Source: Octopus vulgaris | Taxonomy: Eukaryota | Direction: 5' to 3' | Length of the DNA: 64,000 bases | Assembly: GCA_951406725.2 (NCBI GenBank) | Contig: OX597821.1 | Span: 107,880,001 to 107,944,000, forward strand | Part shown: one piece after another, positions 3,126 to 62,110 of the stretch | How the letters are laid out: each line of letters starts with the position of its first letter | Position numbering within the stretch: the first letter of the stretch is position 1 | Notes under the pieces: model-generated | Told to the model about the DNA's origin: nothing | The model's input: the letters and a program-made list of their open reading frames with translations, nothing else | The model's database searches: none | Made by a program: the position numbers and the translations under genes

Positions 3126-4229
3126 ACGATGAGGAGAAATTTTGGATAAAAAAGCGGAGAAGGAGATAAAGTAGTTGTTCCCCATATTTCAATTCGAAAC
3201 GTGCATATTATTTTGTTTGTCTTTATTATTGTCTATGTATATGTATATGCATCTATGTGTTTCTGTTTCTGAGTGTGTGCGCATGTATGTTTGCCTATTT
3301 GTATGTCTGAATGCATGCGTGCATGTATGTATGATCGGAGTATGTATTTATTGAAGTATATATGTATACATCTATGTACATATATACATATCAATGTATG
3401 TACGTATTTATGCATGCATATATCTACGTATATATTTACCAATGCTTATATGTGTGCATGCATCCATCTTTCTATGTACATATGTGTATACATACGTGCC
3501 TATGTGTGTATGAAAGAACGTGTACATGCATCCATCTTTCTATGTATATATGTGTATACATCCATCTCTTTATGTATATATGTGTATACATACGTGCCTA
3601 TGTGTGTATGAAAGAACGTGTACATGCATTCCTGCCTGTCCGACTCACCGTCTCTCAAACCCATTATCTCGACACACGCTCTTTCGCTTTTAGCTTCATT
3701 AGCAAAACGAAGCATTGCCTTTTGACATGGTTCTGAAAGCCAAGTAATAACCATAATCATCGTTTCTTTTTCTTCGTCCATGATTGCTAGGTTTACAGTC
3801 AGCTCAGATATCTCACTCCGGGGACATAATTGATCGATGCCGTGTCTTTCTAGAACGTTCAATTATTTCTTAAAGACGGATTGTACGGCACGACTGCTGC
3901 CCCACCACTGCGTTTCCGCTGCATCCCTGCTGCAATACTACTGCAGCAATAGTTGATGATTTCATGTTACAAATCATCGTATTTTCATCCGTTATGCATT
4001 AACTAAATATGGCGGCTAACAGAGACTCGATTTCAACGAATGTCCGACTGGATGAATGTTTCCTACAGCTACGTTAATTTGTTTCCCCGTCTGCCTAACT
4101 GGCTGGCTGTCTATCTGTGCCTTCAACTCTGTCTTAATGGCTCACCACGTCTGCCTGTCTGTCTGACCATCATTCTATCTGTCTATCAATACATACATAC
4201 ACACACACACACATATATATGTATGTATG

Positions 4230-44988: not shown

Positions 44989-45060
44989 GCTGGCCAGATT
45001 GGAGCAATCTCAAGAATGATCAGCCGAAATTGCGAGGATAATCTGGTGCTTGACTGAGGA
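44989..45060 (+). ncRNA. Permuted or pseudoknotted hammerhead-like motif, family C copy 1 (5'-truncated)
   Basis: GCAA-TC-TCAAG ... TCAGCC-GAAA-TTGC ... CTTGA-CTGAGGA, with extra helix CCAGATT/AATCTGG. Confidence 0.6.
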
Positions 45061-45175
45061 TAGAGGGCTTCGAATGACCCGTCCTTGTTTTGTTTGTACC
45101 GTCTATGTGGATGTTTTGTTGTCTCTTTTTGTATCACCTAGCTGTCCGGTTGTTTTGCGTTCTTGTCCCATTTTG

Positions 45176-45218
<43 letters not shown>

Positions 45219-57120: not shown

Positions 57121-57157
<37 letters not shown>

Positions 57158-57478
57158 TTTTCTCGCCCCGCCTTAATTCTTCCGTCCCTTTGCCTGTACT
57201 CCTCTCTCTCTTCTCTCCCCACCTGACCGGTGTTCGACCAAGTCTGACTTTTCTTTCTTGGTTCGTCTTCTGTCCGTCAACATCTATATTCTTCCCTGTG
57301 CCTGTGAAATCTTGTACCTCTGTCGCCAACTTAATTTAATTCGTCCTTAGACGAAATACACCTGTTGTTATGTCCTGTTATTTGTATTTGTATTTCTCCG
57401 TTTTTTTCCGCCTTTGTTTTCGTATACATTCGCTGCTTTCTTCCAAGGGATCGAATGCTCTTAGCTTAGTTTTTCCTT

Positions 57479-57553
57479 GAGGCTGGCCAGATTGGATCAA
57501 TCTCGAGTATAACCAGCCGAAATTGCAAAAATAATCTGGAATTCGACTGAGGA
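57479..57553 (+). ncRNA. Permuted or pseudoknotted hammerhead-like motif, family C copy 2 (most complete)
   Basis: GA-GGCTGG ... CAA-TC-TCGAGT ... CCAGCC-GAAA-TTG ... ATTCGA-CTGAGGA, with CCAGATT/AATCTGG. Predicted cleavage after 57502. Confidence 0.65.
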
Positions 57554-57662
57554 AAGAAAACTCCGAATGACCTGTCCTTGATTTTTTTGTATCATCTATC
57601 TGGATGTTTTGTTGTCCCTTTCTTCTATCACAGTCTGGATGCTTTGCGTTCTTGTCTCATTT

Positions 57663-57723
<61 letters not shown>

Positions 57724-57817: not shown

Positions 57818-57850
57818 TCTTTTACGTTTCGAGCCTACCCTCTTCAACAG
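57818..57850 (-). ncRNA. Family A hammerhead truncated immediately 5' of the core
   Basis: CTGTTGA-A-GAGG(GTAG)GCTC-GAAAC-GTA-AAAGA. The 5' stem I strand is replaced by an inverted family B unit. Confidence 0.55.
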
Positions 57851-60910: not shown

Positions 60911-61801
60911 TAAAGTTTATGTATGTGTGTCAGAGACGGAGGGGAGAGTGAGTGAAAGAGGGAAAGAGTAGGAGGAGGAAGAAGAGAGGTGCAGTCTACA
61001 GAGTGATTGAGTGAGTGATGAAGTCAGTGATTGCTTGAGTGAGTGAGAGTGTAAAATGAGTAAGACTGAGGATGAGGGATGGAGGTAAGGATGAAGGAGA
61101 TAAGGGAATGAATGAAAGAAGGAAACAGGGAGTGATTGAGTGAGTGTGAGAGTGAGTGAGTTACTGAATAAGTTGGTGGATGAGTGAGACAGAGAGTGAG
61201 TGCCTGATTGAGTGATTGAGAAAGTGAGTGCGCGAGTGGAAAGTAGTAGAAATCCACCAATAATAATATATTCAAAATGTACAACGCCTGAGTGTGGGTA
61301 GAATAACAATGTAAATAAACCCTTTTTATGCTATTGACGCGGGGTGGGGGGATGGAGAGAGGGAAAATCTCAGTTTCGTGGTTTGTTGACCGCTCTTCAG
61401 AGAAAAAGTGCTCAGTTTGCTCTCCCAGTCAATAACATAGATCAGCTACAATATAAAGCAGTCTAAAATTAGGCTAGCGCCAAATTAGTCAGCCTTAGAC
61501 TGCTCATCATTAGTTAAACAATAGCTGTTTTATGCAAGAGACATCGTAAATCAGATGAAATAAGAATAATTTAAACTTTACAGAGAGAGAGACACACACA
61601 GACAGATTGACAGACAGACAGAGGGAGAGAGAGAGAGAAAGATGAAGAGAAAAGGAGACACAAAGAAAGAGAGGCAGAGAAAGACCGAGGGAATCTCTTG
61701 ACGGACCTTTTTATGATGAATGCATTATTCACACTTGGTGATCTTACAGAAAGCTGTATATACTGTATATATACTCTAACCCTCTTAACTTAGACATTTT
61801 T

Positions 61802-61874
61802 GAGGGCAACTAGATCAAACCGGCTCAAGTGTAACTGCCCGAAACGGTCGTGACTTCTGGTACTTCACTGAGGA
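61802..61874 (+). ncRNA. Permuted or pseudoknotted hammerhead-like motif, family C copy 3 (divergent subfamily)
   Basis: GA-GGGCA ... ACCG-GC-TCAAGTG ... TGCCC-GAAA-CGGT ... TACTTCA-CTGAGGA, with CTAGA/TCTGG. U16.1 is changed to G. Confidence 0.55.
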
Positions 61875-62110
61875 AAGAAGGTCACGAAAGAACCGTCCTT
61901 TTTCTGCCTGTCCTTCTAATTGTTGTCTCACTTATCCGCCTTTGTATTGTCTATCTGTCCTTATGTTTTATTGTCCTCTGTTGAGTTTTTGCTCCATATA
62001 TATATATAGTTAATCCAAACATGAAAACACAAAGAGAAAACACAACAACGCAGGGACGTGAAACAAGTATAGTGTTATTCGACGCTCAGGAAAGGAAAGA
62101 AAGAAGGAGG

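Follow-up and report, generated by a model that had tools for sequence, protein, structure and literature searches.

The hammerheads closest in layout to the motif described here are the non-circularly permuted type-SGC and type-CSG forms (Eckert et al. 2023, PMC10085705). In the scheme set out in the parts of that article considered here, block C (CUGAnGA plus its adjacent stem II strand) is assumed to be uninterruptible, and six block orders are allowed because the core blocks are taken as unbreakable. Minimal type I hammerheads of Penelope elements lie in a terminal repeat on the sense strand, with a short tail running into (TA)n; they keep the circular order, have a tiny palindromic stem III and act as dimers (Cervera and de la Pena 2014, PMC4209133). 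Penelope and viroid hammerheads with an unpaired base between A9 and stem II have been described (PMC4209133), and since an extra base is tolerated there, this core link is the likeliest to bear a branch. Naiads target (TA)n and form tandem and inverted copies (Craig et al. 2021, PMC8557442); the portions of that source considered here state that canonical hammerheads are absent from them and label some HHR_core or HHR_half_core, giving no structure. Metazoan non-LTR retrozymes are described as non-coding tandem units of ~150-450 nt, from monomers to multimers, each with one canonical type I hammerhead; they have been proposed to pass through circular RNA intermediates and to derive from the terminal repeats of Penelope elements (Cervera and de la Pena 2020, PMC7229834; Li et al. 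2026, 10.64898/2026.07.22.740005).

We analysed a 64-kb stretch of the Octopus vulgaris genome (the window), which contains three copies, with cores at 45054, 57547 and 61868, of a motif that we call family C. Sequence comparison indicates six helices, a conserved core, a free N7 and free bases before G10.1. It is probable that the RNA assembles a full hammerhead core whose chain is open at A9|G10.1, with the gap splinted by two stacked helices, and that it likely cleaves itself after C17 (57502). The predicted topology is that of the SGC/CSG class, closed through a helix P4 and reopened inside block C. Compared with type-SGC as described in PMC10085705, family C has the same S-G-C order, pseudoknotted stems I-III, 3-4 nt linker, stem I-II interaction helix and full core, but its stem II strand no longer adjoins A9 and lies on the 5' side, and it adds helices P0 and P5 and a predicted kink-turn. 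Moreover, type-SGC and type-CSG RNAs came from metatranscriptomes and metagenomes (with one bacterial candidate), whereas family C is present in an animal genome in thousands of copies. No description of the family C topology was found in the open-access literature.

Copy 2 (57157-57680, on the plus strand, as are all features of the three copies given here) was delimited by blastn of the natural tandem unit L026 against the window (83% over 561 nt), and consists of a 5'-truncated unit with a pyrimidine-rich body, the putative ribozyme motif and a tail that stops close to a (TA)n run. Its motif opens with the 5' strand of P5 (57427-57442), the predicted splint, which partners the segment after A9. 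Hairpin P0 (57443-57480) contains TTTCC and TTGA, and its 3' strand ends directly before G10.1 (57481), the first base of the 5'-displaced 10-strand of stem II (57481-57486), which was recovered by the alignment and by RNAalifold. The 5' strand of P4 (57487-57493), equivalent to the type-SGC stem I-II interaction helix, is followed by the GA on the non-bulged strand of the predicted kink-turn (57495-57496), between P4 and stem III, and by the stem III 16-strand (57497-57502) with U16.1 (57501) and C17 (57502). The predicted cut, at which the 5' ends of genomic copies show a step, falls between 57502 and 57503. Beyond it lie the stem I strand 3' of the cut (57503-57508), a 4-nt linker from stem I to stem II (57509-57512) ending in a UAA that is invariant in 44/44 aligned rows, and a stretch (57513-57526) that the alignment resolves into the stem II 11-strand, G12-A13-A14-A15.1 (57519-57522) and the stem III 15-strand. 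The kink-turn bulge and its GA, with a G-to-A decay at 57530, precede the 3' strand of P4 (57533-57539) within 57527-57539; the stem I 2-strand and the contiguous core C3-U4-G5-A6-N7-G8-A9 (57547-57553), assigned by core conservation, occupy 57541-57553; and the 3' strand of P5 (57554-57569), drawn from the alignment and single-sequence folds, begins at the first base after A9. G10.1 sits 72 nt upstream of A9 (57553), and neither copy 2 nor the 44-row alignment links A9 to G10.1 directly or via 1-2 bases. Across subfamilies the 3' strand of P0 ends 0-2 bases before G10.1 and that of P5 begins 0-2 bases after A9. A kink-turn comprises a 3-nt bulge and, after it, tandem G-A/A-G; such a bulge together with both GA steps occurs in 35 of 44 family C rows (one row being mis-anchored) and in all 16 copies of a second family discussed below. 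Copy 2 carries three decay changes (T at 57497, A at 57530 and A at 57480).

The other window copies are shorter. Copy 1 (44989-45192) is 5'-truncated within the stem II 10-strand and is without P0 and the P5 5' strand. The preliminary description counted two complete copies, but the second of these, copy 3 (61775-62008), which belongs to another subfamily than copy 2, starts at ~61775 within P0, lacks the P5 5' strand and has a decayed cleavage triplet (G at U16.1) and one stem I mismatch. Searching the 2.8 Gb genome (227 contigs) by similarity with each of the three copies gave 2,042, 1,648 and 2,520 candidates, and a degenerate descriptor found 6,216 exact matches genome-wide versus 0 with the pattern reversed; the family C motif is a high-copy interspersed repeat of at least 6,216 copies. 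A generic three-stem descriptor gave 89 matches (overlapping loci included) versus 0 in the same 1.49 Mb reversed. A repeat-finder run on the window returned mainly microsatellites, a metagenome search gave 3 matches, none with the stems by eye, and a search of viral contigs gave 0.

The structure was assessed on 44 hand-picked rows spanning the subfamilies, and its 55 pairs were drawn from those same related sequences. The six helices (P5, P0, II, P4, III and I) were paired in 88.1% of 2,387 cells, compared with 83.7% in shuffles that ignore the relatedness of the rows (0 of 500 as high) and with 30.6-47.8% in slid registers. Seventeen of the 55 pairs changed on both sides, with at least 2 in every helix, although two of the five whole-structure measures (pairs changed and pair types) were no better than shuffles. 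Stem I was paired in 97.3% of cells (2 pairs changed on both sides), stem III in 95.5% (3 pairs, with U16.1-A15.1 in 44/44 rows), P0 in 88.8% (3 pairs), P4 in 88.6% and P5 in 81.7% (4 pairs), the first two P5 pairs beside A9 being unpaired in 18/44 and 23/44 rows. An A-U/G-C swap in stem I was concordant in 30/30 descriptor matches. RNAalifold, which draws no pseudoknots, returned stem II alone from the alignment. Folding single sequences without pseudoknots recovered P5 in 5/5 copies having its 5' strand and P0, whole or partial, in 4/5, but not all of the core stems. An alternative helix (57460-57469 with 57547-57557) joins the P0 loop region to CUGAG and would turn the core off; this pairing was present in 77.5% of cells with little covariation, and the minimum-energy fold of copy 2 contains it.

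Conservation of the core is consistent with a hammerhead. Among 98 copies collected by DNA similarity and anchored on their flanks only, positions 3-6, 8 and 9 were kept in 93-95 (G8 in 95, A9 in 93), while N7 was G in 81, T in 9, A in 7 and C in 1, all three queries having G. The six fixed positions of CUGANGA were invariant in 44/44 rows of the structure alignment, where N7 was 13 G, 13 A, 14 T and 4 C; about half of these rows were found with a pattern requiring CUGANGA, so that the flank-anchored count is the unbiased one. We know of no hammerhead in which N7 does not vary. Each column of the C11.1-G12-A13-A14-A15.1 block was kept in 43-44/44 rows, and position 17 was C in 43/44 and T in 1/44. 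It was A in 15/16 copies of the second family and in 41-49% of reads at the C17 position L004:1573 in three RNA runs of a related species, the latter representing a subfamily with an AUA triplet; C, T and A are all permitted as H (not G) at this position.

With the core directly after stem I, the GAAA block, A15.1-U16.1, an H17 that is not G, and covarying stems I-III, the predicted motif is hammerhead-like by every sequence test and departs from types I-III and SGC in chain continuity. It has neither the circular block order of types I, II and III nor a match to their Rfam models: no hammerhead was among the Rfam matches listed for the window (150 of 272), which were microsatellite-driven miRNA, and five loci gave 0 gathering-level matches. 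Hairpin, HDV-like, twister and pistol ribozyme readings were dropped after comparison by eye with the consensus motifs. A protein-coding reading was ruled out because of frame-breaking indels between subfamilies and the lack of adjoining sense RT or GIY-YIG motifs; a short ORF from an ATG after the core has a different open length across the 4 units compared. The window also has 11 fuzzy matches (at 82, 10714, 17183, 40789, 41129, 45327, 53830, 54701, 57850, 57926 and 62141) to the minimal type I hammerhead of Penelope elements in the form that has an additional A ahead of stem II, those at 57850 (minus strand) and 57926 (plus strand) being an inverted pair.

The element that carries the motif behaves like a non-autonomous Penelope-like element, judging by its insertions. 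Copies end ~130-200 nt beyond the core, in (TA)n, and are 5'-truncated anywhere from ~70 to 670 nt upstream; several stand head-to-tail at ~800 nt spacing, or inverted. Insertion thus combines a constant 3' end and truncation at the 5' end with tandem or inverted copies and a (TA)n target. Like the minimal type I Penelope hammerheads (PMC4209133), the motif lies in a terminal repeat on the sense strand with a short tail into (TA)n, but its stem III has 5-7 bp and it can be drawn as a monomer. It also resembles Naiads in its (TA)n targeting and its tandem and inverted copies (PMC8557442), and differs from them in having no ORF. As in the retrozymes described in PMC7229834 and 10.64898/2026.07.22.740005, its units are non-coding and tandem with one hammerhead-like motif each; unlike theirs, the motif is rearranged and the unit is 774-870 nt long. 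An ATG lies just after the 3' strand of P5, and a splice-donor-like GTRAGY lies past the tail in 3/4 tandem units (L215:3945-3955; L054, L026); together these may mark a first exon and intron, like those of other Penelope terminal repeats.

The 5' ends of genomic copies bear on whether the predicted cut is used. A (TA)5 run stands no more than 30 nt upstream of the GAAA block in ~1,500 matches (a few loci counted twice), and junctions were counted at positions up to +13. Exact matching placed 99 junctions at the predicted cut (72 + 27, two spellings) and 8 one base upstream, while an AT microhomology site at -11/-12 had 27. Thirty loci examined individually had 7 ends at +1, 19 at +4 to +13, 4 at -12 and 0 at -1 to -11. 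Classing by eye of the first 100 rows of each of two match lists placed 21 ends upstream and 26 at the cut, with most others downstream, in agreement with these thirty loci; the upstream ends are as expected if circles or uncut RNA also get copied. Some insertions consist of just the 140-nt 3' product flanked by TA runs. At L297:1134-1333 two family C copies stand head-to-head, and the predicted cut is the exact start of one of them. AT microhomology shapes the distribution and confounds the 5'-end step.

These patterns could alternatively reflect a fold that is real but catalytically dead, very slow or protein-dependent, and that serves as a structural signal for binding or pausing of the reverse transcriptase, with structure and microhomology together producing the 5'-end step. 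We consider this unlikely, though it is the best supported of the alternatives. Most junctions do lie in the AT-rich +4 to +13 interval, and RNA reads from three runs of a related species span the motif on either strand without their ends accumulating at the cut, although these reads are unstranded, derive mostly from diverged copies and were drawn from ~6% of each run, and are uninformative on cleavage. Backward-going joints in the reads were set aside as tandem mapping artefacts. There is also a precedent in the anole Penelope hammerhead, which in the parts of PMC11167929 considered here needs protein to cleave, is dispensable for in vitro insertion and leaves no RNA-seq ends. Against a dead fold, however, the catalytic positions are fixed across subfamilies and phyla while the stems covary, junctions drop from 99 to 8 across one bond even though position -1 has more microhomology, and short copies span the interval from cut to tail. 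A probably active core remains our preferred reading.

A different question is where the chain of that core is broken. The preliminary description placed its letters correctly (TTGA at 57477-57480 and 61800-61803, CUGAGGA at 57547-57553 and GAAA at 57519-57522), and its statement that the segment 3' of CUGAGGA is unable to pair with the strand preceding GAAA is borne out by the sequence. Its proposal that the stem II partner lies instead at the 5' end of the motif gained comparative support, with 57481-57486 and 57513-57518 paired in 87.9% of cells and 3/6 pairs changed on both sides. The motif might still be an ordinary type-SGC hammerhead in which the stem II partner follows A9 past a short insertion and the upstream complement forms a competing helix only. 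Some subfamilies do have GGCU 5-6 nt after A9, from which 4 pairs with the pre-GAAA strand are possible. But this segment is absent from the copy 2 subfamily and from the second family, and where present it belongs to P5 and fails to follow changes in the 11-strand. The upstream strand does follow them: each of three pairs has 11-12 rows with both partners changed. An ordinary type-SGC arrangement is accordingly very improbable.

The preliminary description further suggested that CUGA comes from the 3' end and G8-A9 from the GA of the upstream TTGA, the flanks TTTCC and GGAAA forming a helix at position 7. TTGA does precede stem II in both window copies that retain the upstream flank, but this arrangement can be given almost no credence, since TTGA is found in 8 of the 88 copies whose upstream flank is readable and its G is paired at the base of P0, A stands at the relevant column in 2/44 rows, the proposed helix is at chance, and the contiguous G8-A9 is fixed in 44/44 rows beside a free N7. 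TTGA does not characterise the family: immediately before G10.1, 49/88 copies have TTGG, 11/88 have TGGG and 8/88 have TTGA, and the last two of these four bases are GG in 67/88, while several subfamilies insert 1-2 other bases instead. The TTTCC/GGAAA pairing was found in 61.8% of cells, whereas shuffles averaged 62.5%; it did not outperform slid registers either, and the TTTCC pyrimidines pair locally within P0. The main inference of that description thus fails the check it proposed on the conservation of the two GA dinucleotides, the upstream one being unconserved and the contiguous one fixed, and the data favour the alternative it also offered, that the contiguous CUGAGGA supplies G8-A9 and only stem II is discontinuous. 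Its expectation that flanking helices bridge the break is of the right sort, except that P5 and P0 are the helices involved and A9|G10.1 is the site of the break. Because the upstream GA is variable and TTTCC/GGAAA pairs at chance, we infer that G8-A9 come from the contiguous CUGANGA; the discontinuity appears real, but the bond concerned is A9|G10.1 rather than position 7.

The same split topology recurs, in a different sequence, in a second family of the same genome, with 334 exact matches (including L226-L245 and L291:710-870 on the minus strand). This family has a GUA cleavage triplet and a 1-nt stem I-II linker, and it matches the published octopus Naiad 3' UTR; at three places its motif lies 1.7-3.4 kb downstream of decayed Naiad ORF remnants. 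Two of 20 listed copies start at the predicted cut, TA microhomology blurring the junction. Inspection by eye of Naiad consensus 3' UTRs (part of the 54 entries in the PMC8557442 supplement) showed the same rearranged order in three phyla: the wiring is present in a box jellyfish, three corals, an acanthocephalan and two octopuses, and decayed in squid. This order is seen, with different letters in each of the stems, in Naiad-2_Movir (so named from the order of file and table), Naiad_Plae, three Acropora Naiads, Naiad_Obim and Naiad_Ovul. In these entries P0 ends no more than 1 base from G10.1 and P5 starts no more than 1 base from A9+1, with no unpaired base on either side of the splint in Naiad_Plae and Acropora. 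By eye the kink-turn is not evident in the coral or acanthocephalan Naiads, the motif of Naiad_Esco is decayed, that of Naiad_Bfor is partial (stem I of only 2 pairs, P5 not seen), and the nematode Naiads have a conventional core order. The 3' tail of Naiad-1_Movir in that supplement looks like a twister ribozyme when set against the twister consensus, and suggests that Naiads may swap ribozyme classes.

An autonomous partner for family C was sought in several ways. Family C units contain no ORF with an N-terminal GIY-YIG, a CxC motif and a C-terminal RT, and blastn gave no match between family C and the Naiad 3' UTR of the same genome. The RT-motif pattern search gave 0 matches; the DK-motif pattern search gave 3, equal to the control level, one being a true Naiad remnant. 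A protein search gave 66 matches, and among the 50 regions examined family C pieces occurred in 3, none reading as the 3' UTR of an ORF. Neptune-type ORFs beside family C copies were rejected as partners, being on the opposite strand with their own minimal hammerhead. These Neptune-type Penelope elements (L224:1444-2921 and 3750-3790; L221:4200-5620), which by motif have an RT, a Cys-rich linker and a GIY-YIG, share a (TA)n run tail-to-tail with family C. Since no ORF was found linked to family C, its tie to Naiads is one of topology.

Taken together, an opened but splinted core could work as follows. The blocks run from the stem II strand through P4, the cleavage block, the GAAA block and P4' to stem I-CUGANGA. 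One continuous upstream strand would pair in P5 with the bases after A9 and pass straight into P0, which ends at G10.1; with P5 and P0 stacked end to end, A9 and G10.1 would be brought together as if they flanked a nick. Stems I and II would be held together by P4, and the kink-turn would bend P4 against stem III. Lying in the terminal repeat of a non-autonomous Penelope-like element, the motif may cleave tandem transcripts into unit-length RNA. Part of the released RNA might be reverse-transcribed as linear 3' products, giving short copies that start at the cut, and part might be circularised and copied round more than once, giving arrays with fixed 3' and scattered 5' ends. The enzyme would act in trans from an autonomous element, most likely a Naiad or Neptune Penelope-like element.

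A young subfamily offers a view of this second route. It forms near-identical arrays of 844-870 nt units, up to five full units long, whose 3' end is fixed at +150 from the predicted cut and whose 5' ends are scattered round the unit. Five of the 10 multi-unit arrays contain variants that all their units have and that no other array has. The five-unit array G000:C1:108237301-108243805 (L271-L275) has seven A-to-G changes inside the putative ribozyme, between +3 and +49, in 5/5 units and an eighth (+55) in 4/5, and two of the changes destroy GAAA. This array fits repeated reverse transcription of one circular RNA that had undergone A-to-I editing, although variants common within arrays could also stem from DNA-level tandem expansion after insertion.

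More broadly, and as a tentative proposal that we rate possible rather than probable, the A9|G10.1 opening with its coaxial splint may be a seventh natural hammerhead architecture and the missing ribozyme of much of the Naiad clade, with circularised units copied by a rolling circle and with A-to-I editing of the core switching it off and being written back as edited multimers. If true, a natural form opened at A9|G10.1 would break the rule of unbreakable core blocks adopted in the parts of PMC10085705 considered here, and the opening would explain why descriptor searches missed the motif. As P5 depends on sequence ~110-125 nt upstream of A9, cleavage could be gated; the splint would be a built-in switch point that designers of ribozyme switches could use. 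With the edited array and the young arrays of identical units, it becomes directly testable in an animal whether a circular RNA is reverse-transcribed by rolling circle. For the Naiads, the rearranged motif would overturn the statement in PMC8557442, in the portions considered here, that these elements lack hammerheads, and would therefore bear on whether Penelope-like transposition needs ribozymes.
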